A stretch of DNA of 64,000 nucleotides. Source: a virus. Position 1 is the stretch's first letter. Each line of letters opens with the position of its first letter. The stretch lies in IMG/VR virus record IMGVR_UViG_3300035670_000145, positions 9,811 through 73,810 of that record, one strand, 5' to 3'. The notes beneath the pieces were generated by a model. That model was not told where the DNA came from. It saw nothing but the letters and a program-made list of their open reading frames with translations, and made no database searches. Of this stretch, positions 4,301 through 63,849 are shown in pieces. A program made the translations under genes and the position numbers.

Positions 4301-5839
4301 GTTTCTAAAGCTTTGTAACTGCCCCACTGCCGCCCCTACTTGAGAGGGAAAATCTTGCAAGAAAGCAAGTAATTTATAGGCTTGCCCAAACAACAACACT
4401 TGTTTTGTGGCAAAAGCAAACTCAGAGCCAAGCTCTCTAATCATTCCAGAGCCAGGAAGCCTCATATTTGCAAATGCGCGGGCAAACTCGCCAGCTCCTC
4501 CGCCCCCACTGGGAGGGCGGCCGCCGCCACCTCCTCCGGTGCCACCGCCGCCACCGCTGCGTGGCTGTGGCACAATTGCCCCAGGGGCAGCATAGGGAAC
4601 AATGGAAGAAAGCGGACGAGGGGATCTGTATGCATAGCCATAAGGAGAAGGAGTTCGCACTCCTGCGCCCGCCATTACATCGGCTTCTCGAAGCGCCGAC
4701 CGCATACGTGCTTTTCTTTCACGACGCGCAAGCATCTCTTGGCGACTTTCCCCATCGCGCTCCAAGCGTCCAGTAGCGTAAGAGGAAGGTGTTCGTCCCA
4801 CGCCCGGAGGAAGCAAGCCCGCGATGCGACCAGGGGCTAATGCCGCTCGTACTGTATTGCCAAGATCTTTTACGTTGACACTGCGAATGGCCGCGTTCAA
4901 CTCGGTGCGCACGGCATCAACAAAAGAATTAGCAGCGTTGCGCAATGCGTCTTTTAATGCCGGAGAAAGAATATCTCCAGTCAATCTTTTTTGACTGGCA
5001 AAACTAGCACCAGGAAGTTCCGCGAACGATCGACCAGCCGGCAGCGCTCGCGATGAAACTGTCGAAACTCCAACAGGAGTGGGCCTAGTCGCCGTCCAAT
5101 TAATCTCTGGGAGTCTTCTTCGTTCTGCTTCTCTTGCTCGAATGGCAGCAGGATCAACGCCAGCCATAAAGAATATTGCACGAGCAATTTGGTCAAGCAA
5201 AGTGCGCTGAGGCTGAACCCCGCCAGGTTCTCTCATCCGCATTTCCATGCCAGACGCAGTCTTCCCGACCATGCCCTGCGTGCGCATGTACTCCATAAGA
5301 TTCAGAAAATCTTGTGGTGGCGCAGAACCACTGGCGGCTCCTTTGACATTTGCCTTGACGTTTACGCTGATGTCCCCTAACGATTCCTTTACAGCCCTCT
5401 TGAAATCCGCAACATCAGCTTTGGTGATTGACGGTTTAATGCTGACGGGAATGCGAATTTTACCACCAGTGTCCTCTAATGCGCTTGATCGAATGGTTCT
5501 ATAAATATCGGCTACGACAGATTTAGCGTCTTTCTGTGTTGTTCCGTTTTTGACAGAAACCCCAATGGCAATTTTTTCGTTTGCAAGTAGTGCCAGGCTG
5601 GTCTTTGCTGTTTCGAGGCGCCTGGCAAGCCCTTCCAACTGAGAATCGTTAATTTTTAAGCGAATTTCTTTGCCGAGATCTTTTAACTGTCTGTCAAGCT
5701 TTTGCTTGTTAATTGAAAGATTGATTGGGTAATATTGGGCAGACGCGGCTTTTGATGCTTGGGCTAATTGTGCGCGAAAGCCTGCGAGATCAAGCGTAAC
5801 GCCAAGCTGAAGACGAACATCACCTGCGCCCGCTGCCAT
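1373..5839 (-). CDS. Tail tape measure protein
   Basis: 1488 aa, Ala/Gly-rich helical; tape-measure signature AFAQMASKGQVMSEEL.GQL.D.LPGA; C-terminal FANGG/GPTLGLVGEG..EAIVPL. Confidence 0.95.
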   Translation of the reverse strand: MAAGAGDVRLQLGVTLDLAGFRAQLAQASKAASAQYYPINLSINKQKLDRQLKDLGKEIRLKINDSQLEGLARRLETAKTSLALLANEKIAIGVSVKNGTTQKDAKSVVADIYRTIRSSALEDTGGKIRIPVSIKPSITKADVADFKRAVKESLGDISVNVKANVKGAASGSAPPQDFLNLMEYMRTQGMVGKTASGMEMRMREPGGVQPQRTLLDQIARAIFFMAGVDPAAIRAREAERRRLPEINWTATRPTPVGVSTVSSRALPAGRSFAELPGASFASQKRLTGDILSPALKDALRNAANSFVDAVRTELNAAIRSVNVKDLGNTVRAALAPGRIAGLLPPGVGRTPSSYATGRLERDGESRQEMLARRERKARMRSALREADVMAGAGVRTPSPYGYAYRSPRPLSSIVPYAAPGAIVPQPRSGGGGGTGGGGGGRPPSGGGGAGEFARAFANMRLPGSGMIRELGSEFAFATKQVLLFGQAYKLLAFLQDFPSQVGAAVGQLQSFRNTLSAISPTAREAAISNEFILSIVDRYNIPLQSARDGFTKLYASMSPAGFKGEEIRGLFTGISQAAATFGMSADKVDRVNYAFAQMASKGQVMSEELKGQLGDVLPGAMAIFTEAAGFKGPEAISKFSKALEDGAYKGDAMKQLLLNVGVIMRKEFGAGAEGAALTFQGVINRLQNSMKLLYESFEPVAVGFLNSVVVPLTNGIKVVTDGFNTFFTGTQAKTAGGAALAKELAQLRPSLEGIGQNLRELVPAFQLFGNILLNVGKVLASIAGNPVTGFLLKIYANVLLVNTVFTMLGGKILLGLVASIGATVSKFIALNAQFIAVSRSATIANTQLAGTKVQMGLLAGAATAATGPVTALKVALVGLARFGLIAIAIEVAISGMSEIDRLKKSLDDIAGFSSKEYQKQVKGLSREEVNSRIIVNRRSQVQARKELAQFSGPLGAARGLITGRDEELRARLAMQQVQEAVLTGARLNPTQAQLAQRQAGGALGNIPIGGGNGKAAKAKADKAANEAKRLAEEIAKQAQAASDALFAEQQRLSVMQATNPVAKTFAEFASQELTIRRELNQALKEAKSEKEKQSITETARIKSAQNSLTLEQEMQRVRENALQPIKDLLASQREQLRYEKDVKDLMSEGMLPERARQVAEVRKLVRAQMETLDLSISQAETAITEREAREGSSEATKKLREELERLKTVRGGIAQAGSAAEAGVPREAAKGPMDLIKDAAGSARGELDKLTNWGFQAVEGAKAIGSAFGQAFKDIASGSMSAQEALANMMQSIADHFLDMAAQIIAQQITMMIYGIILKALGVMGGVGGGTGANYSGAFGSTPGTSFSDALKMPKLAANGAVWEGGFQAFANGGIVQGPTLGLVGEGKYNEAIVPLPDGRSIPVQMQGESIRDKMGGNYGSSPSSPILSMSFETTSINGVEYVSREQLEAAMMETRRAAVKEGSVRGASLAIDKLQQSPNTRRRIGMR

Positions 5840-22255: not shown

Positions 22256-22741
22256 ATGCCCACTCCCATTGAATTTGTCTTCTCCGAAGAGGAAAGGAAG
22301 CAGGCGATGGAGGAAGGACAACGACGCCAGTCTGTGAACGAAACGAAAGGGCTTCGAGGGCGCAATAAAGGCGCGGCCCGTGGTGATCAAGCTTTGTCTA
22401 TTCACTTGCTTGGCGCCGCAGGTGAAATGGCAGTGGCATCTTTCATGGGCCTAAAGCACGAGCTTTACAAAGAAAGCGAGGCAAGGCGCGGGTCCGATGA
22501 TTTGCCGGGAATTGACGTAAAAACTCGATCAAAACATTCCTACGATCTCATTGTGCAAAAGAACGAAGACCCCGGAAAAAAGTTTGTTTTGGTGACCATT
22601 GAAAACCAAAAAACTTTCATTCATGGCTGGTGCTACGGAAAGGAAGCAATGGAGGAACGATTCTGGGCCGATCCCGCGAGAGGTAGGCCAGCTTATTTTG
22701 TTCCTAAAGAACAGCTTCGCCCCATGTCAACTTTGCAATGA
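22256..22741 (+). CDS. PD-(D/E)XK-like nuclease-fold protein
   Basis: GE.AVA ... D..... DVKT motif; ATG at 22256 after TATGAT. Confidence 0.55.
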   Translation: MPTPIEFVFSEEERKQAMEEGQRRQSVNETKGLRGRNKGAARGDQALSIHLLGAAGEMAVASFMGLKHELYKESEARRGSDDLPGIDVKTRSKHSYDLIVQKNEDPGKKFVLVTIENQKTFIHGWCYGKEAMEERFWADPARGRPAYFVPKEQLRPMSTLQ

Positions 22742-24120
22742 GCAGTTCTCTCAAATGCAGCGACTTTGCCAGGCATGTATTAAAGCTTGAGCTTTGGCCT
22801 GAGCAAAAGCGCATTCTTGACGGCTACTTTGGCGGCAACAAAACTCATGCCGTGTGGGCGCTTGGGCGACGCTGCGGCAAAACGCTTATGGCCGCTATTG
22901 CAGCCCTGTACGCCTGCTTTGTCTTGGAAGATCAATACAGAAGGCGCGTGCGAAAAACGGAAAAGTGGTACATTCTTACCATTGCAAACGATCAAAGCCA
23001 GGCAAAGCTAGCGCTCAATAATATTCGCCAGCTTCTAATGGACAGTCCTCTTGTTGATGAAATCACAAGAGAAACTGCCACTGAAATTGAAACTAGTAAT
23101 AATTGCGTGTTCCAAGCCATTCCTGCATCGGCCCGCGCTTCTCGTGGTAAGGCCGTGGTGATGTTAATCATGGACGAGCTTTCCTTTGCTATTGAAGGCG
23201 ATGCCAACCGTGGCGCAAAAGCCATCTACGATGCGCTTTCCCCTTCCATTGCACAGTTCGGGCAGCACGGACGCATCCTTGAACTATCTTCTCCATGGCT
23301 CACCGATGGCCTGTTCTATCAGCACTATTGCGAGGCAAAATCTGGAGAGTTTCCCTTTATGCAGGCAGTGAATCTCCCAACTTGGGAGGTGAATGTTAAT
23401 TTGCCATGGGGATGTGCATTCCTTGACGCTGAACTAAAACGTGATCCCGATAAGTTCTGGGTGGAATATGGAGCTCAGTTTGCTAAAAACAATTCAGCAC
23501 TATTGGCCACTGAAATTGTCGAAGCTGCCATAAGCAAGGAGCGGGGAGTACTGTTTCCCGAGAAAGAATTTACTGGCACTTATGTGCTTTCCCTGGACCC
23601 CGCCCGAGGCGGTGTGGGACGAGACGATTACACCGCTTGCATTGTTCATTATGAGGGCGAAAGGCTAGTGGTGGACAAGTTTCACGCCTTCGAACCAGAC
23701 TTTGAAATTGGTGGCAAGAAAGAAGTGAACATGGCGAAAGTGGAAGAGTGGATCAAGGAACACCATCGCATTTATGAGTTTCAAAGTATCGTGCTTGACC
23801 AATTCAATAGCAGCTTTATCATTCAGAATCTTTCTAAGGATTTTCCTATTGCAGAATTAGCCTGGTCAGTTAGCACAAAAATGAAAGCCTTCAGCAAAAT
23901 GAAAGAGCTCTTTAATGCTGGCTTAATTGAACTTTATCCTCACCAAAAAGCAATCACTCAGCTTAAAAATTTGAGCGTTATTTATAGAGCAAGCGGACAA
24001 TGGGCCGTCACTGGAGGAAAGGAAGTGGGGGTTGATGACTATGCGTTCGCACTTGCGGCGGCGATTCTTGAGGCATCCAAGGATAATGACATCGACTGGT
24101 TGAATAGTCTTGTTCGATAA
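22738..24120 (+). CDS. terL: Terminase large subunit
   Basis: Walker A GRRCGKT, Walker B LIMDE, SSP coupling motif, nuclease LDPA...D and C-terminal DD. Confidence 0.93.
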   Translation: MSSSLKCSDFARHVLKLELWPEQKRILDGYFGGNKTHAVWALGRRCGKTLMAAIAALYACFVLEDQYRRRVRKTEKWYILTIANDQSQAKLALNNIRQLLMDSPLVDEITRETATEIETSNNCVFQAIPASARASRGKAVVMLIMDELSFAIEGDANRGAKAIYDALSPSIAQFGQHGRILELSSPWLTDGLFYQHYCEAKSGEFPFMQAVNLPTWEVNVNLPWGCAFLDAELKRDPDKFWVEYGAQFAKNNSALLATEIVEAAISKERGVLFPEKEFTGTYVLSLDPARGGVGRDDYTACIVHYEGERLVVDKFHAFEPDFEIGGKKEVNMAKVEEWIKEHHRIYEFQSIVLDQFNSSFIIQNLSKDFPIAELAWSVSTKMKAFSKMKELFNAGLIELYPHQKAITQLKNLSVIYRASGQWAVTGGKEVGVDDYAFALAAAILEASKDNDIDWLNSLVR

Positions 24121-25950: not shown

Positions 25951-26020
25951 GGGCTCCTCCAGGAATCGAACCCGGCATTCCAGGCTATCTGCCTGACGTG
26001 TAAACCAACACCAAGGAGCA
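25951..26020 (-). tRNA. Non-canonical tRNA-like element (Ile GAT-like loop)
   Basis: Cloverleaf GCTCCT/AGGAGC, GTGT/ACAC, TCAGG-CAGATAG-CCTGG, CCGGG-TTCGATT-CCTGG; A33, 1:72 mismatch, short D-loop, no CCA. Confidence 0.7.
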
Positions 26021-26137
26021 AGTGACCCCCAGGTTTGAGCATCGTTGAGAGGCTTAGGGGGTGTTAAACGATGGAGCAAGCGTGAGGGTCATCCGGGATT
26101 TGCCCCCAGTGACGCACAGAGGCTTGCCCGCCGTCGC
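26021..26137 (-). ncRNA. Structured RNA 5' of the tRNA-like element
   Basis: -10 TATAGT at 26143-26148; nested stems GCAAGC/GCTTGC, GTCA/TGAC, CTGGG/CCCGG; C5/G5 hairpin; CATCGTT/AACGATG complementarity. Confidence 0.55.
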
Positions 26138-30904: not shown

Positions 30905-31543
30905 TCAAACAGAAAGAGACCTCACGCTTTTACGAGGAGCCCTTGGCTTGATGAGCATAGCGTAGTGGGCCTCTCCCTGTTCTGTCAGCTCATAAAGCCC
31001 CTGCTCTGGCCGCCTAACTATGCCTTCCGCTAAGAGCTTGCCAAGCGTGTTATAGATGGTTTGAAGGGGAATGGCTGCTCCTGGCAAGGCATGAAGCGTA
31101 GATGGGGCGCAGGGTTCCTGGGACTGCCCTAGAAGTTCGATAATCACTTCCTTTGCCGTGGGCATTGCCTTTTCATCACCACTTGGCCTCCATAGCAATC
31201 TTCCCCTGCAGCGGCCGATAATGGCACGAGCTTGTCTTGTGGAGCAAGGCAGTTCCCTGATGAAGGCCTGCAAAGCAGCATTGTTTTCGTGCCAACAGGG
31301 AGACACTGGCGATTTTGATGGCGCAAGGTCCTCTATATGAGTGGTAAGTCGTTTTTCGTCTTCTAGCGAGGCTTGCACCACTTTTAGGACGATGAGACGA
31401 CTCGGACAGCAATGGAGGAAATTGTGAAGGGTTTCGTTGACGGCGGCGATATTGGTGCGCCATGAGCAGTGGACAAAGGCTGGAATACCTTCCCACTGCA
31501 CGAAAAAGAACTGACCGTCGCTGTGCTCCCAGTCCAGGGACAT
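30905..31543 (-). CDS. Putative DNA-binding protein (degenerate T5orf172-like N-terminus, winged-helix C-terminus)
   Basis: C-terminal TIYN.L.KL..EGIV.R...GLYELT..G; upstream TTGACA-N16-TATGGT. Confidence 0.55.
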   Translation of the reverse strand: MSLDWEHSDGQFFFVQWEGIPAFVHCSWRTNIAAVNETLHNFLHCCPSRLIVLKVVQASLEDEKRLTTHIEDLAPSKSPVSPCWHENNAALQAFIRELPCSTRQARAIIGRCRGRLLWRPSGDEKAMPTAKEVIIELLGQSQEPCAPSTLHALPGAAIPLQTIYNTLGKLLAEGIVRRPEQGLYELTEQGEAHYAMLIKPRAPRKSVRSLSV

Positions 31544-31772
31544 GGCTTCTAAGGGGCTTACCAAAGCACCATATCACTTACCAGCTCATTGTCAACTCAG
31601 GAATTCCCTCCTCTTTGCTCGCACTTACCACCATAGGCAAATTACAATAGCTGTATGGCGCAGCGTATGTCCTCTGACAGGCAACGCAGCCACGAAAGGA
31701 CCGTCACGAGCAGCTCAGCTCCCTTCGCCTGAGCCGCTTCGAGCGGGAGCAGCCGCCTTGGCGGCGTGTCAC

Positions 31773-32131
31773 GAAGGCCGCAACGCGCCTTAGCCCCCAA
31801 GGCGAACGAACCTAGCGGCCTTCTGCCCCCAGCGACCTTGTCATAGCGGCTCTTCTCAACAACCCTCCTCTCGACTGCTTCTTTTAAGAAACCTTTGCCA
31901 GGAGCCCGTTACGAGCAATAGCCCCCAAGGCGTACGATCCTAGGGCTCCCTCCTAACCACCTTCTTTTCAACTATTTCTTTTCTGACAGTAGTGTGATCG
32001 CCCATGGTGTGCGCAGCTACCGCCAGTCTCATTGTTTTCTCATTTGAGACTAATTTGAGACAATATTGAGACTAAAGAAGGGGCACGAACAACGCCGCTT
32101 GGGGCGGCTCCTGAACATAGGCCCCTTCTTT
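31773..32131 (+). repeat. Cluster of stem-flanked GCCCCCAAGGCG-type elements
   Basis: Elements at 31773-31823, 31901-31949 and 32074-32131, each closed by a different perfect 7-11 bp stem. Confidence 0.7.
32043..32075 (+). repeat. Three 11-bp-period TTGAGAC direct repeats
   Basis: tttgagactaa tttgagacaat attgagactaa, preceded by inverted GTCTCA/TTCTCA half-sites. Confidence 0.7.
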
Positions 32132-32495
32132 GCACAATTCAACATTCGGGCACTATCTTGCGCTCGGGAACGATCTTAGTGCGCTCACTCCTTCTCGTAA
32201 GCTTTAGATCGTTCGCGCAGTGCGCACTAGCCTTTCGCCCATAAAAAATAAACGAAAAAAAACGCGGAAAAAGGAAAAAAGTCGTTTAAAAATTGCGTCG
32301 CTTTAAAAAGGGGTGCCCCCGCCCCAATCCACTCCCATAGCAGGCGCTACTGCTCCCTGTCTGTATCCGTTGCTACCGTTTGGCGGATTGTCACGTAAAG
32401 TTACGTTCAAATCTGGCCGCAAATTTAGGGATTGTCTCTCTAAACCACGCAACAATAGGCGCCCACTATGAAGCAGACGCCCTGTTGATTTCAAC

Positions 32496-32660
32496 CTATT
32501 GTTCTTCAGCGCCTATGATTTCACTAGAGACAATAGCTTCATGGTCGAAACTATAGTCTGCATCCGCTACCACCTCGTGAGGATTTGCGGCCCCTGATAT
32601 AACCAACTTAACTGTAACGTAGACTGTAGCCTGCGCAGTGTGATTGTAACGTTGCATCAT
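32496..32660 (-). CDS. Small hypothetical protein
   Basis: 54-aa ORF overlapping the stop of the upstream gene; VV.D.DYSF.H..I...EI pattern. Confidence 0.5.
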   Translation of the reverse strand: MMQRYNHTAQATVYVTVKLVISGAANPHEVVADADYSFDHEAIVSSEIIGAEEQ

Positions 32661-33256
32661 GCCACCTCCCGAATCATGCGGCGCCATGTGCACCATGTGA
32701 TAGCCTGAACTTGCGCCGGCTTATAGTTTGTGCCCATAATGCCGTTAATTTGTGATGCTGCAATGGTAAAGTCTGCAGCGATTGCAGCGTAAAGTTTAGG
32801 ACTGATCTTAGGCGTTTTAGTTGTTGACACTCTATCGCCCAGCCAAAGACTGTAGGCATGACCGTCAACACAAACAACGTCGTAATTTCCCATAATGCAA
32901 TCATAAAAAGCGCGCACTTTCAGACCGCCCAGTATGTCAAGCGGCGCAAGTCCTGCCAGGATTTGCAATGCTTTAGCCTTATTTGCGTTGTACGTGCTGA
33001 CTTTCAGCGCTGCGCAATCACCGCCGGAAGCGTACAACTTGCAAAGTAAATCAGCGTCTACGATGTTGCGCTCCCACCGATTGTTTGGACTCAGCGCTGC
33101 AATCACGCCCGCTACAGTCTGCAGACTGAGACCATGGTTGTTAGCGATTGTCTGCGCGATTGTTTGCGCCTGATTGTACCATTGACTGCCATATTGTATT
33201 TCAGCATGATTTGCGCTGAAATAGACCGCGAGAATAGCGCCGTGTGAAATTTTCAT
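32657..33256 (-). CDS. HhH DNA-glycosylase-like phage protein (DUF7178-like)
   Basis: WY..A, IAALSP...W..N, G.KV.AFY, V.VD.H, QVQA..W motifs. Confidence 0.65.
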   Translation of the reverse strand: MKISHGAILAVYFSANHAEIQYGSQWYNQAQTIAQTIANNHGLSLQTVAGVIAALSPNNRWERNIVDADLLCKLYASGGDCAALKVSTYNANKAKALQILAGLAPLDILGGLKVRAFYDCIMGNYDVVCVDGHAYSLWLGDRVSTTKTPKISPKLYAAIAADFTIAASQINGIMGTNYKPAQVQAITWCTWRRMIREVA

Positions 33257-33260
33257 GGCC

Positions 33261-33302
33261 GTTTGTTTGTGATTGTTTGTTTGTGATTGTTTGTTTGTGA
33301 TT
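33261..33302. repeat. 14-bp tandem repeat x3 (GTTTGTTTGTGATT)
   Basis: Three perfect copies fill the intergenic gap. Confidence 0.9.
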
Positions 33303-33303
33303 G

Positions 33304-33762
33304 TCAGAACGCTTTGATTAGTTTCTGCGGCTGAAATTCGCCATGATATAAACATGCTGCAGCTTGTAAAATTATTTCAGAATGCAGCAGCCACCAGATA
33401 TCTCTAGGCGCTGATTTGCGCGCCATTTTATAGCTGAATATTTCACCGCTCAGAGTAGAGTCAAATCCGCCGCTTATGTGGTGCCAATCATGCACAGCGC
33501 GAAATTTAGCATTGTCAGCAAAGCTAAGAAATGGGTGATTGTTGTGCAGCACGCTGATAGCTAGGACGTTTGATTGCCGATATATCCGCTGCGCAACAGA
33601 TAGATCTACCTCCTGATACCAGAAATCAACGTGGCATGGCAGACGATCGAATTCGGCGCAAATCCACGTGCGCAGCGCTGCGCGCTCGGCTTCGGTGGGA
33701 TCGGTAGGCGCTGCAGCGTAGAGAGCTGCTAGGCGCGCTGCTAGGCGTGATTGATGGACCAT
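33304..33762 (-). CDS. Hypothetical protein with N..FRAVHDWHH motif
   Basis: His-rich motif plus GE and L.SE patterns suggest a metal-binding protein. Confidence 0.6.
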   Translation of the reverse strand: MVHQSRLAARLAALYAAAPTDPTEAERAALRTWICAEFDRLPCHVDFWYQEVDLSVAQRIYRQSNVLAISVLHNNHPFLSFADNAKFRAVHDWHHISGGFDSTLSGEIFSYKMARKSAPRDIWWLLHSEIILQAAACLYHGEFQPQKLIKAF

Positions 33763-34087
33763 TTGCGGATTGCTAGTGAAAATCGCTGCATCGCTGCAGC
33801 AAACAAACAATAGGCGCAAGCGGCCAGAATGCTAGGTCACATAGGGAACACTGATCGCGGCAGACTGGTCATGCGTCAGATAAGCGGATACGCTTATCAG
33901 TGGAGGTTTCGGGATCCAACCATGAGTCACGCTGATCAGTCAACCGCCGCGGACGCCGCCCCTACCATGAGACTAGAGAGACTGAGCCGGATTGTTGCAA
34001 ACGGTCACATTTGCGCTGCTGATATCAGGAGTGCTAATGTTAAGAAATATTTTGTAACATTAGCAATATTGATATAAGCAACACTCA

Positions 34088-34300
34088 TGCAACGAAATGT
34101 GAAGAAATGTTAATTATTAAGAATTGTTAAGAAATGTTAATTATGAAGAAACGTTAAGAAATGTGAAATATTGCGAAATGTTAAGAAATGTTAAGAAATG
34201 TTACAAAATGTGAAGAAATGTAAATGTTAAGAAATGTCAAGAAATGTTACAAAATATAAATGTTAAGAAATGTTGCAAAATGTGAAGAATTGTTACAATA
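34088..34300 (+). repeat. Array of 10-bp TGTTAAGAAA/TGTTACAAAA/TGTGAAGAAA units (HLR1-like)
   Basis: 18 full 10-mers plus five 6-7 nt truncated units, counted directly. Confidence 0.9.
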
Positions 34301-34316
34301 GTACAAATGTACTATT
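34297..34316. promoter_or_regulatory. Cyanobacterial LexA-box-like palindrome
   Basis: AATAGTACA-AA-TGTACTATT; core AGTACAAATGTACT fits RGTACNNNDGTWCB exactly. Confidence 0.65.
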
Positions 34317-34348
34317 GATGCGTCTATGTGCATAGGCTCATAAAAACA

Positions 34349-34367
34349 ATTGAGAATGATTCGCAAT
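34349..34367. promoter_or_regulatory. Fur-family box-like palindrome
   Basis: ATTGAGAAT-G-ATTCGCAAT, a 9-1-9 palindrome with one mismatch. Confidence 0.55.
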
Positions 34368-34379
34368 AGCAATACGCTT

Positions 34380-34457
34380 CCAGCCGGATCCAATACGACG
34401 CCAGCCGGATCTTGATACAACCTTAGCCGTGTCCGATAGAGCTCTGGCCGGATCTTG
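34380..34457 (+). repeat. Four 21-22 bp imperfect direct repeats (cagccggatc core)
   Basis: Units start at 34380, 34401, 34423 and 34444. Confidence 0.75.
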
Positions 34458-34479
34458 TCAATTCTTTTGCTTTGTGCTG

Positions 34480-35010
34480 TCAACACTTCACAATGATCCT
34501 GCCATCATTTTCGTCCCATCGAAAGATTGCCCATTGTTGATACAGCCTCCCCAGCTCAATAGCCTGCTCTTCTGATATGCCGTAGATGGCCCAACTAGGC
34601 TCTTGCCAGCTCCCATCGACAGACTGCCCCACCACTTCTTCACAGGATGCCCCTGAGAGCCCATCAATGCGCCTGCGCAAGCTTTCATGCAAAGGCTCGT
34701 CAAAAAGACGATGAAGCGGGGTGTTTTGGCTGAAAGGACAACAAGCAGAAACAATAAAACAAGGCAATGAAGATGGCGCCCAGGCATAGCCTTCTGTCGA
34801 AACAAGCACTGCTTCGTCGAAGAGTTCCAGAGGAGCAATCGTCTTTTCAATCCTGAATTCAGCTAAGGCATCTCGCAGGAAATCAACAAAATGCTGTTTG
34901 TGAATGTTTTTGAAGATATTGTCCACATATTCTTTAGTGTCAGGATCGTAAAGCACCATGCCTCTCCACCAATCGTTAACAAAGTGCAAAAGCTGATCAT
35001 CGTCAATCAT
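34480..35010 (-). CDS. DUF3293-like protein
   Basis: C-terminal G.S.DGSW.EP.W......A..LG..Y.Q.AIF. Confidence 0.65.
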   Translation of the reverse strand: MIDDDQLLHFVNDWWRGMVLYDPDTKEYVDNIFKNIHKQHFVDFLRDALAEFRIEKTIAPLELFDEAVLVSTEGYAWAPSSLPCFIVSACCPFSQNTPLHRLFDEPLHESLRRRIDGLSGASCEEVVGQSVDGSWQEPSWAIYGISEEQAIELGRLYQQWAIFRWDENDGRIIVKC

Positions 35011-36389: not shown

Positions 36390-36440
36390 ACAATAGAGCA
36401 GGAGAGGCCCCTGGAAAGGGGCCTGTAACAATGCTTCACA
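36390..36440 (-). promoter_or_regulatory. Early promoter cassette A
   Basis: TGTGAAGCAT-TGTTACA direct repeat, GC hairpin, -10 TATTGT. Confidence 0.75.
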
Positions 36441-36807
36441 CTGCATCAAGCCTTTCCGCTTCGCGCTCTGCCATGTGGCGCTGATTGGCAAGCCAGTTCC
36501 TAAATTCAACCCACGTAGCAGCAGGCACTGTGGCCATCGCCCAAGAGCTCACTGCTTGACGCCTGTCGCAATCTTCATTGCAATAGGAGATAGGAGCTTT
36601 GAGCATGGTCAACTTATGAGCAGCATGCTCGCAAAGATCGATGCCAGCGTGGTAGGAGCTGGGAAGCCATTCTAGAAAGGCCTCGGTAGTGCGCTGATTG
36701 GCGCAGAAAATGTGCGTGAAGAGCTCCTGTAGGTCGAGCATGTAAAGCTCGTGGCTGGTGGCTTTAGCCCAGAAGCCGTGGTCAGGACGATTGAAGGAGA
36801 TGGTCAT
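36436..36807 (-). CDS. Hypothetical early protein
   Basis: ATG at 36807 downstream of cassette B. Confidence 0.6.
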   Translation of the reverse strand: MTISFNRPDHGFWAKATSHELYMLDLQELFTHIFCANQRTTEAFLEWLPSSYHAGIDLCEHAAHKLTMLKAPISYCNEDCDRRQAVSSWAMATVPAATWVEFRNWLANQRHMAEREAERLDAV

Positions 36808-36848: not shown

Positions 36849-36899
36849 AGAATAGAGCAAAAAGGGGCTGTTGCCAGCCCATGAATCATTGGCTTCACA
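36849..36899 (-). promoter_or_regulatory. Early promoter cassette B
   Basis: TGTGAAG half-site, GC hairpin, -10 TATTCT at the same spacing. Confidence 0.7.
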
Positions 36900-36910
36900 A
36901 ATCGTTGCAA

Positions 36911-37048
36911 TCAGCGCCGTTGATCACAAATGCCGGCCAGCATTTCGCCCACGTGGGCATGGGCAGCACGAAGCTGGTCAAAGGCTTGATCGCGCTCCTT
37001 GCGGGCCTGGTAGTAGGCATCAGGGCCCTGAGGGTAGAAGTCGCGGCC
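36911..37048 (-). pseudogene. Orphaned original 3' half of gene 37569..37826
   Basis: Reads GRDFYPQGPDAYYQARKERDQAFDQLRAAHAHVGEMLAGICDQRR*; 30/44 identical to the upstream gene's C-half; no start codon. Confidence 0.9.
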
Positions 37049-37533
37049 TATATGTGTTGCCATATTTTGCGTAAAACAATTTGACTTATCAACGGCTGTG
37101 TTACATTAAATTTTCTCGCCAAAGTATTCGTCGATTCACCACCCGCCGCGTACAATTCTCTTATTTTTAGCACTTCTTTTTCTGTTAATTTTGCCTTGCA
37201 ATTTCTTTCACCTTTGGCGCTAGCAAAGATACGTCTTCCTCTTTCGACCATGTCATTGTAATTATCTTGGTCCGTGCCAAGTTCCAAGTGAAAAGGATTA
37301 CAGCAAGAAGGGTTGTCACACTTATGGCGCACCAGCATGCCAGTTGGTATTTCTCCAAAGGCAAATTCCCATGCTGCGCGGTGAGCCAGCATCTGTCTTT
37401 TGTTGACCGTGATTCTTCCATATCCAGACTTGAGTCTTGACTTGGACTTCCATTCCCAGCAAAGATCTACCGGCGCTTCGGTAACGCTTCCCCAAAGGCG
37501 CTGCCATGCCGGCACTTTATTCCATTGTGTCAT
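37048..37533 (-). mobile_element. HNH homing endonuclease
   Basis: CWEW....GYG...AHR......H.CDNP.C.NP.HL..GT...N motif plus C-terminal HTH; AT-richer than flanks. Confidence 0.9.
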
Positions 37534-37864: not shown

Positions 37865-37914
37865 ACAATACAGGCAAGAGGGGCCGAAACCCCTGCTTGT
37901 CACAAAGCTTCACA
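37865..37914 (-). promoter_or_regulatory. Early promoter cassette C
   Basis: TGTGAAGCTT-TGTGACA, GC hairpin, TATTGT. Confidence 0.75.
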
Positions 37915-38166
37915 AACAGCGTCAATCAGTTTCTTCTGTGCCACTCGCTTGCCATTAACCTTCCAAATCGTGGTGCTACTCCAGCGACCACGGCCCATGC
38001 ACCGAGGCACAATCCAGCAAGCTATTTCCTTTCCATTAAATTCTCCAGAAGCAAAACCTCCAGCGCTGCTTCCATTTTTGCAGCTCTGAGAAAATGCTTG
38101 GTCATAAAGCTTGCCAGTGAAGACAGTGGCGTCAGAAACAAGAAATAGAGCGTCCATGGTGATCAA
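37900..38166 (-). CDS. Hypothetical early protein
   Basis: 88-aa ORF. Confidence 0.55.
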   Translation of the reverse strand: MITMDALFLVSDATVFTGKLYDQAFSQSCKNGSSAGGFASGEFNGKEIACWIVPRCMGRGRWSSTTIWKVNGKRVAQKKLIDAVCEAL

Positions 38167-38437: not shown

Positions 38438-38488
38438 ACAATAGAGGCAGGAGGGGCCTGGTCAGCCCCTCCGCAACAATTGTTTACA
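38438..38488 (-). promoter_or_regulatory. Early promoter cassette D
   Basis: TGTAAACAAT-TGTTGCG, GC hairpin, TATTGT. Confidence 0.7.
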
Positions 38489-38665
38489 AACGGTTCGGGC
38501 CTTGCATGCCCTGCACCACCATGAAGCTCTTAGTGGTGAACACGGCTTTGAGGCTTCGAGCCTGTCGTTCGAGGGCATTGCGGTCAGGACTGGAATCAAG
38601 CATGGTCCAATCCATGCCTGACTCTGCCCATAGGCTCCAAACGTCGCGATCAAGAACTGCCATGA

Positions 38666-39253
38666 TCAGTCCCTCACCATGACGGGCAACAGCAAGAACT
38701 GAAGCTCAGTGTCTCCTAGGCTTGTAGTGAGCAGCAGTGGCGAAGTGGAAGATTCTCCCATTCGCACCTTGATATTGACAGAATCTGCAAGCTTTGCGCT
38801 GATGTCGCAAATGGTGCGCATGTATTCGCTGTTGAGCACTATGGGCTTGGCCGGAGCATTTGCCATGCTGGCCGGATCTGGCCAGAGACTATCAAAGTGA
38901 GAAGGAAATTCACCCCTGTTGTCACCTACGCAGGGGCGAGCTTCTAGCAAGTCCATCACGCCTTCTTTCTTTCCTCCATAGAACCTTGATTCTCCATTGT
39001 TGATGATTGCCTTTTGTGCATAGGCCACTTTCTTTTTGAAGGTTTTTGCTGGTATCAATGCTTCTGGGCTTTGCATGAAACAAAGAGGACCAAATGGCAC
39101 CAGGCAGCGAAAAGCGAAGTGGCCATTAGTGGCGGCAATGCGCATGCCACGAGGAGTGCTTTTCAAGTGGATGTCAGTAATGGCACCTTTGTAGGCGTCA
39201 GGATGGACAAATTGTGCTGCGATGTGCAGCAGGATTGCAGGAGCTTCGATCAT
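38666..39253 (-). CDS. Beta-clamp-like domain protein
   Basis: I.ATNGH, G.FP, N..Y and terminal L.PV patterns of partial DnaN-like phage proteins. Confidence 0.6.
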   Translation of the reverse strand: MIEAPAILLHIAAQFVHPDAYKGAITDIHLKSTPRGMRIAATNGHFAFRCLVPFGPLCFMQSPEALIPAKTFKKKVAYAQKAIINNGESRFYGGKKEGVMDLLEARPCVGDNRGEFPSHFDSLWPDPASMANAPAKPIVLNSEYMRTICDISAKLADSVNIKVRMGESSTSPLLLTTSLGDTELQFLLLPVMVRD

Positions 39254-42460: not shown

Positions 42461-43201
42461 CTAAGGGGAATCATCTTCGGGCATGGTCAGCATTGGCCTG
42501 CTGTTGCCGGTGGGTTCGCCGTCGTCGTCAAACTCAGGCTCCACTTCTGCTTTTGCATCAATGGCAGAAGCTCTGAGTTCGGAATTGCTCTCAGCTTCTT
42601 TGATCTTTTTTACTTCCTTGGTGAGCGTATCCAGGAAGTTCTTGTAGCCGCTCTTTTCTGCCGTTTGAGGCTTGATGTCGAACAGGCCAATGAGCTTTGC
42701 TTGCTGTTCCAGACAACTGCGTGCAATGCCTAAGAAACCGCTTTCACCAGCGCTCTCCTCAATGCGCACAATTGTTTCGTCTTTGCTTTCGTTGTAAGTG
42801 GTGACTTTCTTGCGCTTGCTTTGCTCGAACGATTCCAGGGCTTTGTTCTTTAACTCGTCCTGTTCCTGCACCAGCCGTGCCCGCCAAGTGTCCTGGCTCT
42901 TCAGGATTTCATGAGTCCAGATTTGACGATTATGAATGCGATCGGAACTGACGGTCTCTTTTGACAGCAGCAACGCTTCAGCGATTTGCTTATTGCTCAT
43001 GCGAGCTGCAAGCAGCTCCTGCACCATGTAGCGCCGCTGTCCAGTGAGGTCTTTGTCGTAAGGGATTTTGCCAGGGCCTAGCCCCACTTTATTGCGAATG
43101 CGATCAATTTGCTCTGGTGTAAATCCTGCCTCTACAAGCACTTTCGTTGCATATTGCAACTGCTCTTCTTTAGAAGCAAAAGAAATCTCAGGAAGAGGCA
43201 T
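42461..43201 (-). CDS. HTH protein, candidate terminase small subunit
   Basis: N-terminal HTH (MSNKQIAEAL.LSKETVSSD) and G...FL......EQ.AKL.GL oligomerisation-type motif. Confidence 0.55.
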   Translation of the reverse strand: MPLPEISFASKEEQLQYATKVLVEAGFTPEQIDRIRNKVGLGPGKIPYDKDLTGQRRYMVQELLAARMSNKQIAEALLLSKETVSSDRIHNRQIWTHEILKSQDTWRARLVQEQDELKNKALESFEQSKRKKVTTYNESKDETIVRIEESAGESGFLGIARSCLEQQAKLIGLFDIKPQTAEKSGYKNFLDTLTKEVKKIKEAESNSELRASAIDAKAEVEPEFDDDGEPTGNSRPMLTMPEDDSP

Positions 43202-43863: not shown

Positions 43864-43899
43864 AAGCCTGTCTCGTTAAGCAAGATGATGATCGAGCAA

Positions 43900-43928
43900 A
43901 TTATGACAGCCAAGAAGGCGATTGTCAA
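43900..43928 (-). promoter_or_regulatory. Sigma70-type promoter
   Basis: TTGACA-N17-CATAAT. Confidence 0.75.
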
Positions 43929-43933
43929 TGTTG

Positions 43934-44170
43934 TCACGAGGCCTCTCCACTTGCGACAAAATTGCGATTGATGAGAGAGACAATTTCCTCGTAAGTGCTA
44001 CGCCAGTGACGCTCACCGTCTTCGGGATTGCGGGCTCCGTAAAGCATGCGCGATCGTGGTGCAGCACCCCTGTCAGGCATTGAGAAACCATGGTGATGAA
44101 TGGCTTCAATTTTCACTCCCTGGTGTTCGAGCGTGGGGAGCTTGTCAGGAGCGAGAGGAGGCTTAGGCAT
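43934..44170 (-). CDS. Hypothetical protein
   Basis: 78-aa ORF, first leftward gene from the 44.2-44.6 kb divergence. Confidence 0.55.
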   Translation of the reverse strand: MPKPPLAPDKLPTLEHQGVKIEAIHHHGFSMPDRGAAPRSRMLYGARNPEDGERHWRSTYEEIVSLINRNFVASGEAS

Positions 44171-44205
44171 TGTGCCAGTAAAAAGCCTTTGTAGTTTAAG
44201 AGAAG

Positions 44206-44266
44206 ATTGTTGAGAAGAGCGCTATGAAAAAGCTCGCCTGGGGGCTCGCCTGCTCGTACGCGCTCT
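44206..44266 (-). repeat. Inverted copy of the 31.8-kb stem-flanked element
   Basis: Reverse complement has ACGAGCA..AGCCCCCAGGCG..CATA inside an AGAGCGC/GCGCTCT stem, then TCTCAACAA, matching 31825-31864 and 31901-31949. Confidence 0.7.
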
Positions 44267-44631
44267 AGCAAGGGTTACTTAGCAGGATTCTCAATAAACG
44301 ACGCTTATCGAGAATCCAATTATTCCCCTCCATCGCTCTTTCCAGAAGAAGCGCCGCAGGGCTAGTGATGCAGCTCTGCGCGTGGTCATGCCGGCTTGCC
44401 CTAGGCGCGTAGATGCGCATGGTCAAGCCTCCGGACGATTGTAAAACTTGCCGCAAGCTCAAATGTGCCAGTTCAGAAATTGGCACAATGGAAAAGAGCA
44501 TGGTTGACGCTGGTGTACCATGACGAAGTCCTCGGCCATGCCATGCCCATGCTTCGTGACATTTGGCTCATTGCAGCGCTCTACTGGAGCGTCTGTGCTT
44601 TGTTGATTTTTCTTGCTAGTAAAATCCTTCC

Positions 44632-62994: not shown

Positions 62995-63849
62995 CTACAG
63001 CACCGGCATCTCATATTCTTTTGTGGTGTTGCAATAGTGCTTGAAAATAATTTCGCTGGTATTGCCTGCCCAATTCGCTACTTGCGGCACAGGGATTCCA
63101 GCCTCAATCCATCGACTGATGGCAGTGTGTCGACAATCGTATGGCCTGTACAGGTGTGAGATTAAATCGCATTGATGCAGTGGCTGCAACTTTTTGCGAA
63201 AATAGCTCTGGAAGGCAAGCCTGTCCCATGGAAAAATATATTCTTGTTCTTGTGGGAGTTTCGATAAAATTTCTTGACACCTTCCGTTCAATGGCACCCA
63301 TCGTTTCTTGTTGGTCTTGGTGCTATCTTTTAAGCCATGGGTCAGCGTCCAATTTTGATGCACTAAGGCTTTGTTGTCCTTGATGTCACCCCAGCGCAGT
63401 GCTCGCACCTCGCCGGTTCGCATGGCCGTTTGCAACATAAACTCTGCATACCAAGCCCAATTCACATTTTTATAAGTTTGCTTCGCCTCCAGAGCGGCCA
63501 GCACAAGTCCGGTCTCATTGCGGGGGATCACAATGATATCCTCGTCCCTTTGTGGGGCTTTAGGCATTTTGAAGCTGACCAAGGGATTCCTGTCCAAATA
63601 CCCCACATCCTCTTGTGCGGCCCAACGAAACATAGTTTTAGTGTACATAGCTACGCGACGGCTTGATAACACGGGTTTTTCGCCCAGTACCCAGATCATA
63701 ATTTTGCGTGCCTCTGTTAGCTCTTGAATCGGACAGCGCTTCAACCACTTGGTTACCTGGCTGTAGTCAGAGGTCAAACTGGTGGGACATAAAGAAATTG
63801 AGCGCTCTTCCAAGAAGGCGCTCCAAAGCTCCGAAAGCGTAGTAGGCAC
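62995..63849 (-). CDS. Tyrosine recombinase (integrase/Xer-like, no arm-binding domain)
   Basis: T.MR.GE..AL.W.DI, TK, PY..RHT, GN......HY catalytic pattern; promoter TTGACG-N17-TAGTGT at 63874-63902. Confidence 0.9.
   Translation of the reverse strand: MPTTLSELWSAFLEERSISLCPTSLTSDYSQVTKWLKRCPIQELTEARKIMIWVLGEKPVLSSRRVAMYTKTMFRWAAQEDVGYLDRNPLVSFKMPKAPQRDEDIIVIPRNETGLVLAALEAKQTYKNVNWAWYAEFMLQTAMRTGEVRALRWGDIKDNKALVHQNWTLTHGLKDSTKTNKKRWVPLNGRCQEILSKLPQEQEYIFPWDRLAFQSYFRKKLQPLHQCDLISHLYRPYDCRHTAISRWIEAGIPVPQVANWAGNTSEIIFKHYCNTTKEYEMPVL

Follow-up and report, generated by a model that had tools for sequence, protein, structure and literature searches.

A tandem array of predicted RpaB-type sites in the central control hub of a probable temperate cyanosiphovirus

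Introduction

HLR1, the site of the OmpR-family regulator RpaB, consists of two direct 8-mers, (G/T)TTACA(T/A)(T/A), with two arbitrary bases between them (PMC6525291), and RpaB uses it according to position, activating from −66 to −45 (centred at about −51) and repressing at or near the transcription start site (TSS) (10.1101/443713). Single HLR1 occurrences in cyanophages have been mentioned (PMC6525291). Here we analyze 18 HLR1-like units arrayed in tandem within a 64-kb window, our term for the whole 64,000-nt stretch of viral DNA taken from IMG/VR record IMGVR_UViG_3300035670_000145. The phage units resemble the RpaB sites of hliB, psbA, psaAB and psrR1 (Riediger et al. 2019, PMC6525291) in their half-site, (G/T)T.ACA(T/A)(T/A), in direct repetition and in the 2-nt linker, and the position-dependent use of host sites would have a parallel in phage sites predicted to lie at about −50 in promoter cassettes and over a predicted TSS in the intergenic hub that holds the array. 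They differ from the host sites in number (2–6 half-sites per host promoter, at least 18 in tandem in the phage) and in position 3 of the half-site, which is A or C in the phage, where binding is predicted.

The reading we favor, with a probability of roughly 0.4, is that the array forms a multi-copy platform of predicted sites for a tandem-repeat-binding OmpR-family host regulator, most probably RpaB, in a central control hub of the phage.

Other phages are known to borrow host regulators. NtcA sites have been reported in T4-like cyanophages, and Pho boxes reportedly lie upstream of cyanophage pstS and phoA. There, as would be the case here, the phage uses a host two-component regulator for gene timing; the known sites, however, are single and stand before auxiliary metabolic genes of lytic myoviruses, whereas here they occur in every early-block cassette found and in a dedicated intergenic hub, which brings together arrays for different regulators. 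In coliphage 186 (tum), CTXphi and GIL01, a host LexA box over a phage promoter provides SOS coupling, a likeness that extends to the hub described below, although here the box is flanked by response-regulator arrays. Clustered sites such as E. coli datA (for DnaA) and the P1 incA iterons (for RepA) could lower the amount of free regulator, as the array could, but they titrate the initiator of their own replicon, and titration in the phage hub is only hypothetical. Lastly, lambda ori and P4 ori/crr share with the hub two-turn direct repeats beside an AT-rich tract and exchange as a module; in the hub, by contrast, we found no adjacent initiator, and the AT-rich tract itself consists of regulator-type sites.

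Results

The array matches HLR1 on the minus strand

Parsing by hand and by script resolved 18 full ten-base units with an exact 10-nt period within blocks of 2, 2, 3, 4, 3 and 4 units, the blocks being separated by five partial units of 6–7 nt, much as the original prediction had described them. The units start at 34087, 34097, 34114, 34124, 34141, 34151, 34161, 34178, 34188, 34198, 34208, 34224, 34234, 34244, 34260, 34270, 34280 and 34290. Tandem Repeats Finder likewise returned a period-10 array at 34094–34295 (score 131), along with two higher-order periods, 27 nt (score 188) and 46 nt (score 158), that indicate recent block duplication within the array. With 22% GC, the array is the most AT-rich 200-nt window of the genome, and its double-unit pattern has no second occurrence there. 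Related sites continue to its left, giving three features:

34087–34299, minus strand: the array, with plus-strand units ATGTTAAGAA, ATGTTACAAA or ATGTGAAGAA, reading (T/G)T(A/C)ACA(T/A)T plus linker T(C/T) on the minus strand
34037–34058, no strand: inverted (head-to-head) unit pair, TGTTAAGAAAT / ATTTTGTAACA, from reading the sequence
33994–34011, plus strand: isolated HLR1-like pair, GTTGCAAACGGTCACATT, 1+1 mismatches, from the consensus scan

The proposal that these are RpaB/HLR1-like sites stood up in sequence, in 8+2 periodicity and in the link to phage promoters, but not in its plus-strand register, in which only 5–6 of eight HLR1 positions fit for most units. On the minus strand the units agree with HLR1 at seven of eight positions, including both degenerate ones, and deviate at position 3 (A/C). 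Base counts along the minus-strand 8-mer over the 18 units were T13/G5, T17, A11/C5, A17, C16, A17, T14/A4 and T17, followed by a linker of T17 and C13/T5. The 10-nt period within blocks equals the 8+2 spacing of HLR1 direct repeats. The minus-strand reading makes the unit types ending in AAGAA and ACAAA equivalent, since the (G/T) position and the linker are all that separates them. Half-sites such as TTAACA, TAACAA and TTAAGA are among the predicted Synechocystis HLR1 sites (PMC6331805). In a qualitative comparison, half-sites of these types also occurred upstream of psaA in small cyanobacterial genomes, where up to four HLR1-like units stood in tandem, mostly on the strand opposite to the gene.

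Scanning the 64 kb with the literature HLR1 consensus (≤2 mismatches in 16) yielded 12 matches in the hub, against 0.18 expected from hub composition. Elsewhere in the window there were five matches where 0.93 would be expected, and three of the five fell in minus-strand cassettes at about 36.4–38.5 kb. The matches thus occupied three kinds of location only: the array, early promoter cassettes and two stray sites. The last unit pair of the array, TGTGAAGAATTGTTACA, differs at one of 17 positions from TGTGAAGCATTGTTACA in a cassette (36440–36424, minus strand), which confirms the near-identity noted originally between this pair and the upstream element of promoter cassette A; the underlying pattern search gave five matches, where 0.17 were expected. 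Taken together, the 18 units are most probably binding sites for host RpaB, as predicted from their sequence.

Two other assignments were tried and rejected. An NtcA/CRP-type reading of the pair (GTA-N8-TAC) does not agree with the direct orientation of the repeats or with their spacing, which would come to N9. Taken as Pho boxes, the window units (CTTAACAT, 7/8) have the wrong period, 10 in place of 11, and their variants fit poorly.

The phage is probably temperate and its host cyanobacterial

Kinship with Synechococcus phage S-CBS4, a siphovirus that infects Synechococcus sp. CB0101, shows in the tape-measure protein (38% identity) and, at the DNA level, in several early genes (about 74% identity). 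A tyrosine integrase is encoded at 62995–63849, so the phage is probably temperate; we regard it as probably a temperate cyanosiphovirus related to S-CBS4. This kinship, the cyanobacterial-type LexA box beside the array and the cyanobacterial Pho boxes of a relative together bear out the cyanobacterial host assumed originally. S-CBS4 has neither array nor hub: its record begins and ends within the syntenic gap, where nothing hub-like is found. No Trans_reg_C (OmpR-type) gene was found in the phage.

The IMG/VR virus record from which the window was taken, 73,810 bp long, is rated complete and has the array at about 43.9 kb. This mid-genome position does not agree with the idea that the array marks a terminus. 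Nor does the array fit a packaging site or genome terminus, being internal in two complete records (in the second, a 74,078-bp genome that we call G152, at 25.0 of 74.1 kb) and the candidate terminase large subunit open reading frame (ORF) lying 10 kb away at 22738–24120, an assignment made solely by synteny with S-CBS4 terL.

Early promoter cassettes carry the same site type in a predicted activating position

Four cassettes were found in the leftward early block of the window, each ordered as a site pair, a GC-rich hairpin that is also terminator-like for the preceding gene, and a −10-like TATTGT or TATTCT:

36390–36442, minus strand: cassette with opposite-strand HLR1-like pair GTAACAATGCTTCACACT, GC hairpin and TATTGT; pair to −10, 29 nt
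36849–36911, minus strand: cassette with pair TTCACAAATCGTTGCAAT, 39 nt from TATTCT
37865–37916, minus strand: cassette with pair GTCACAAAGCTTCACAAA, 28 nt from TATTGT
38438–38490, minus strand: cassette with pair GCAACAATTGTTTACAAA, 29 nt from TATTGT

We extended the comparison to S-CBS4 and five metagenomic relatives, which together with the window gave 19 cassettes. In all 19 the HLR1-like pair that fitted best lay on the strand opposite transcription, and it was upstream of the −10 by 28–29 nt in 13, by 39 nt in five and by 41 nt in one. Cassette sites had 0–3 mismatches in 16, while control TATTGT sites elsewhere had 5–8 mismatches to an HLR1 pair. A distance of 28–29 or 39 nt from the −10 places the predicted site centre near −50 or, one helical turn on, near −60, counted from a TSS that we infer; on this count the cassette sites would fall among the positions from which RpaB has been reported to activate. 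All cassettes found in the early block bear the HLR1-like site, and the four cassettes of the window appear, from their sequence, to depend on the host's master light/redox regulator. As a separate observation, an HNH homing-endonuclease gene (37048–37533, minus strand) lies between two of the promoter cassettes.

A regulator encoded by the phage might instead bind the 10-mers in both cassettes and array, the likeness to HLR1 then being convergent or coincidental. The candidate is a 246-aa helix-turn-helix (HTH) protein (42461–43201), annotated 'Rnase E' in S-CBS4 (gp086), with an HTH_23 / sigma70 region 4-like N-terminus and weak GerE / DNA-binding profile matches. It is conserved in S-CBS4 (51% identity) and in relative L063 (58%), that is, wherever cassettes occur, and its gene lies upstream in the same direction of transcription. 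However, the agreement of the sites with the host consensus extends to its degenerate positions and is perfect for one site in G152, and the sites would lie within the published activation range of RpaB; the neighbouring hub elements are of host type (the LexA box, and Pho boxes in relative L290); and HTH proteins of this kind usually bind inverted repeats rather than 10-nt direct repeats. We therefore consider a phage-encoded binder unlikely.

The array abuts a LexA box and a putative leftward promoter

The array stands in an intergenic hub with the following elements and neighbours:

34300–34313, no strand: perfect LexA box of cyanobacterial type, AGTACAAATGTACT, abutting the array
34321–34326, minus strand: weak −35-like TAGACG, 17 nt upstream of a minus-strand TACTAT; part of a putative leftward hub promoter that lies under the consensus-scan threshold
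34350–34366, no strand: operator-like quasi-palindrome TTGAGAATGATTCGCAA, in relatives TGAGAATCATTCTCA
34376–34460, plus strand: four iteron-like direct repeats, (A/G)GCCGGATC...ATAC, 21–22 nt apart, at 34382, 34403, 34425 and 34446
33879–33898, no strand: palindrome GATAAGCGGATACGCTTATC, related to 49-nt repeats that occupy this position in relatives
33304–33819, minus strand: first gene left of the hub, a 171-aa ORF with no assigned function; CTATTGT and a 5' hairpin just upstream, at 33813
32657–33259, minus strand: DUF7178 gene (Pfam 1.2e-48); the listed ORF extends to 33355
34480–35010, minus strand: gene that closes the leftward early block, in which a small acidic domain at the N-terminus is joined to DUF3293; its stop codon faces the iterons

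The LexA box is the sole zero-mismatch match in the 64-kb window to the cyanobacterial LexA consensus AGTACWNWTGTACT / RGTACNNNDGTWCB, for which picocyanobacterial examples have been published (PMC3091678), and it is almost identical to boxes predicted in the lexA and recA upstream regions of marine Synechococcus and Prochlorococcus (examples in PMC3091678). A −10-like TACTAT overlaps each half of the box, at 34303–34298 on the minus strand and at 34310–34315 on the plus strand. No terminator is visible after the last gene of the early block (end at 34480).

These elements suggest how the hub might work. Leftward transcription would start from a promoter that has its −10, TACTAT, within the LexA box and its TSS on the last array unit, so that the array would span about −8 to +205, a repressing position for RpaB. 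In ordinary light, RpaB (up to 8–9 dimers) and LexA would keep the leftward genes, for the 171-aa protein and DUF7178, switched off, and the bound proteins would also stop read-through from the upstream early block. High light, in which RpaB binding is lost, and DNA damage, through LexA cleavage, would open the leftward promoter. RpaB would activate the cassettes, acting there from about −50. With about 13 dimer sites per genome copy, replication would in addition draw RpaB off host promoters, as a side effect and not a primary function. A repair-type enzyme (DUF7178) induced by light or ultraviolet would make biological sense.

The strongest rival is a replication origin, in which the 4–6 iterons (21–23 nt) would bind a phage initiator and the AT-rich array would serve as an unwinding element or a primase-helicase site. 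P4 ori offers a precedent in octamer repeats that bind the P4 alpha protein, and in a variant of this explanation RpaB sites would gate origin firing, much as bacterial origins are gated by CtrA, MtrA or ArcA sites. In both complete genomes no 200-nt stretch is poorer in GC than the array (21–22%), and in both the cumulative GC skew passes from a fall to a rise within 1–3 kb of the hub. The iterons are two-turn spaced and confined to the hub apart from one exact match of the motif at 38870; close relatives exchange the hub for versions with other sets of repeats, in the modular fashion of ori-initiator units; and the phage encodes a Toprim plus AAA_25 primase-helicase. The replication genes, however, lie 12 kb from the hub, and no initiator gene was recognised beside it, where the flanking DUF7178, GP88 and DUF7227 families vary among array-bearing phages. 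An unwinding element would leave 10-mers at fixed promoter positions unexplained, the skew change coincides with a gene-module boundary and may be compositional, and some hubs have iterons but no array. We consider an origin improbable, yet a serious competitor of the promoter-linked RpaB platform, which we prefer.

Further motifs of the hub were followed elsewhere in the window. An RNA reading of the iteron region was rejected, the structure z-scores of −0.2 and −0.6 giving no signal, and Rfam had no match in the hub. A 'Fur-like' label for TGAGAATNATTCTCA was dropped after a literature search for the motif gave no support. A GAGAAT inverted repeat similar to the quasi-palindrome TTGAGAATGATTCGCAA occurs at about 44294. 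The divergent intergenic region at 43864–44631, which precedes the leftward early block, holds a GGATTCTC...GAGAATCC inverted repeat around GATAAGC that shares two hub motifs, and may be another operator region.

Relatives keep the hub order and vary its arrays

To the right of the array, the hub runs from the LexA palindrome at 34300–34313 through the quasi-palindrome to the four (A/G)GCCGGATC...ATAC repeats, and this order is kept in IMG/VR and metagenome contigs L039, L063, L055, L025/L067, L248, L322, L290 and L292, with the LexA box conserved in L063, L055, L025, L248, L322 and L290. Counted by regular expression, array units number 8–12 in most array-bearing relatives, 26 in L039 and 18 in the window, whereas iterons number 4–6 in relatives' hubs, with or without the 10-mer array. 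The genes flanking the hub vary among array-bearing phages, relatives having GP88 (PF17338) or DUF7227 genes where the window phage has DUF7178. The second complete genome, G152, is about 43–70% identical to the window phage in the flanking proteins compared, and unit sequences are conserved between genomes at just this level of flanking divergence; its consensus matches fall mostly in its array (13 of 17), and of the three in cassettes one is a perfect 16/16 HLR1.

In L080 and L083, whose early proteins are 80–95% identical, the iterons are kept and the 10-mer array is absent, and the hub of L081 has wholly different repeat families; all three retain HLR1-like cassette sites. Since cassette sites persist without the array, the binder of the 10-mer is not specific to the hub and, judging from these sequences, would be a host protein or a phage protein conserved clade-wide.

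A different regulator appears in the hub of L290 (SXGQ01257923.1), where eight Pho boxes, in two runs of four and with a period of 11 nt, lie at 1190–1290 between two LexA-type boxes and adjoin three HLR1-like units. The runs (CTTAACCC ttc CTTAACCT gtt CTTAACCT ttc CTTAACCC) are on the same strand as the HLR1 reading and have at most three mismatches in 24 per triple to the cyanobacterial PhoB/SphR site, defined as at least three direct CTTAACCT boxes with 3-nt linkers (PMC1906773). The last box lies 10 nt from TACTGT, the classical Pho-promoter geometry (about 10 nt upstream of a TAN3T −10); elsewhere, a distance of 10 nt separates the final HLR1-like half-site of the hub from the TACTAT inside the LexA box. 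Pho-box runs were absent from the window and from the other loci scanned. The L290 boxes suggest a phosphate input to the same switch, and the hub looks like a place where related phages install different host response-regulator arrays around a LexA-controlled −10.

These comparisons bear on the idea, central to the original prediction, that the array is a sponge, which would primarily titrate RpaB as phage genomes accumulate and thereby derepress host hli and psbA, lower photosystem I expression or time the switch-off of the phage's own early promoters. The second option of the original prediction, that the array loads the activator for early promoters, is conceivable. Many near-consensus sites are indeed concentrated in one place, the array is expanded in two genomes (18 units here and 26 in L039, against 8–12 elsewhere) with recent block duplication, and the cassettes that RpaB titration would affect exist. 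No psbA or hli gene was seen among the examined genes of these siphoviruses, for which no systematic search was made, and a sponge is arithmetically plausible, with about 13 dimer sites per genome copy against the roughly 170 RpaB-regulated promoters reported for Synechocystis. Against titration as the primary role, array position and orientation are fixed inside a cis-regulatory hub, close relatives that keep the cassettes lack the array, typical arrays are short, and the slot is filled in L290 by PhoB sites whose promoter geometry is canonical, a sign of promoter control. We rate a primary sponge as very improbable.

We give equally little credence to a mostly neutral minisatellite, in which a functional cluster of 4–8 sites grew by slippage or unequal recombination and the surplus copies are functionless. 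The higher-order periods and block structure, the different copy numbers among relatives and the existence of unrelated 10-nt minisatellites with similar words in environmental DNA would fit this; an example of the latter is contig L314, which looks eukaryotic or giant-viral and has XRN and F-box genes. What tells against it is that the invariant unit positions are those that HLR1 specifies and that HLR1's two degenerate positions vary alike (position 3 deviates), and that the units are conserved between genomes despite the divergence of their flanking proteins. Part of the array expansion may nonetheless be neutral.

Similar repeats were met in other contigs. An unrelated AT-rich viral contig, L015 (IMGVR_UViG_3300012983_003142), has at 300–400 about nine tandem units CAGTTACAAA / CAGTTAAGAA with the same 8-mer cores as the array and a different linker. 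Short marine contigs (L284 at 5517–5690, L256, L296 and L264) carry long arrays, from 10 units to over 50, built from AATGTTAAGA, AATGTTACAA or AATGTTGCAA; these could be further regulator-site arrays or plain minisatellites, which L314 shows to exist. Pattern scans of genome and metagenome contigs yielded for the most part unrelated simple 10-nt repeats, as in Microcoleus, Anabaena and L314, and we do not count such matches as functional evidence.

Genes and other features around the hub

The DUF7178 gene probably starts near 33259, its homologues being about 200 aa long. The family is large (1146 homologues) and confined to phages. An AlphaFold2 model of the protein had a mean pLDDT of 86; the top Foldseek rows were all 8-oxoguanine glycosylases with weak E-values (3fhg, TM 0.50/0.55, E 0.17), and a structure match in the Atlas reached TM 0.56–0.58. 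In this model the protein looks like an HhH-GPD / Ogg-type DNA glycosylase in fold, with weak statistics. A perfect threefold 14-nt repeat, GTTTGTTTGTGATT, occupies 33261–33304, the probable true gap between the 171-aa ORF and the DUF7178 gene.

On the other side of the hub, the first 59 residues of the 34480–35010 fusion correspond to a small acidic protein that is free-standing in relatives L080–L084, L063 and L290, and its DUF3293 part is seen only in the window phage and not in those relatives. No DNA-binding assignment was obtained for the flanking proteins, a 219-aa protein (30905–31564) giving weak winged-helix (wHTH) hints only.

Farther left, 1.1 kb without a credible ORF (31565–32656) contains ATTTGAGACTA three times (32042–32075), an A-rich tract (32245–32280) and CTATTGT motifs on both strands (32458, 32496, 32536 and 31650), and may be a second regulatory or RNA-coding region. 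An Rfam match to abiF RNA (55.7 bits, above the gathering score) adjoins a tRNA-Ile(GAT) gene, the two lying at 26025–26061 and 25951–26019, both on the minus strand.

Discussion

The fixed place and orientation of the array in a conserved hub, its usual length of 8–12 units and the persistence of cassette sites in array-less relatives point to a local cis role first for the array, with RpaB titration secondary. Several points weigh against our interpretation. At the level of the site, position 3 of the half-site is A or C where the consensus has T, and the first linker base is invariant, for which HLR1 has no requirement. The leftward promoter matches eight of 12 consensus positions, below the scan threshold, and it, the TSS and the repressing geometry are all inferred from sequence. 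The spacing from array to hub −10 differs from the cassette spacing by 2–5 nt, and 18 operators far exceed what repression needs. Relatives have units to the left and to the right of the LexA box, so that one fixed geometry does not fit every hub, and G152 has a larger array yet no LexA box. The conserved phage HTH protein (42461–43201, homologous to S-CBS4 gp086) could be the binder, and the iterons, the low GC content and the nearby turning point of the GC skew would also fit an origin.

A more far-reaching version, which we hold rather improbable, would see in temperate picocyanobacterial siphoviruses a modular 'sensory hub', in which swappable RpaB (light/redox) and PhoB (phosphate) arrays and LexA boxes on one switch promoter or origin compute the light, nutrient and DNA-damage status of the host, while arrays of 18–26 sites would also act as a copy-number-dependent RpaB sponge that reprograms photosynthesis genes and times early-promoter shut-off. 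The sponge component would be new for phages; its support is circumstantial.

Cyanophage infection is light-dependent, and the induction of temperate cyanophages is poorly understood. The array and its hub, which would combine light/redox with SOS input and, in one relative, phosphate-starvation input as well, offer a concrete and testable handle on both. The virus probably reads the light and stress state of its host at this hub and is less likely just to soak up RpaB. If this is true, light-dependent infection, and possibly the choice between lysis and lysogeny in marine and freshwater picocyanobacteria, would become tractable with a few reporter constructs, and the phage would be a virus with a multi-signal sensor made wholly from host binding sites.

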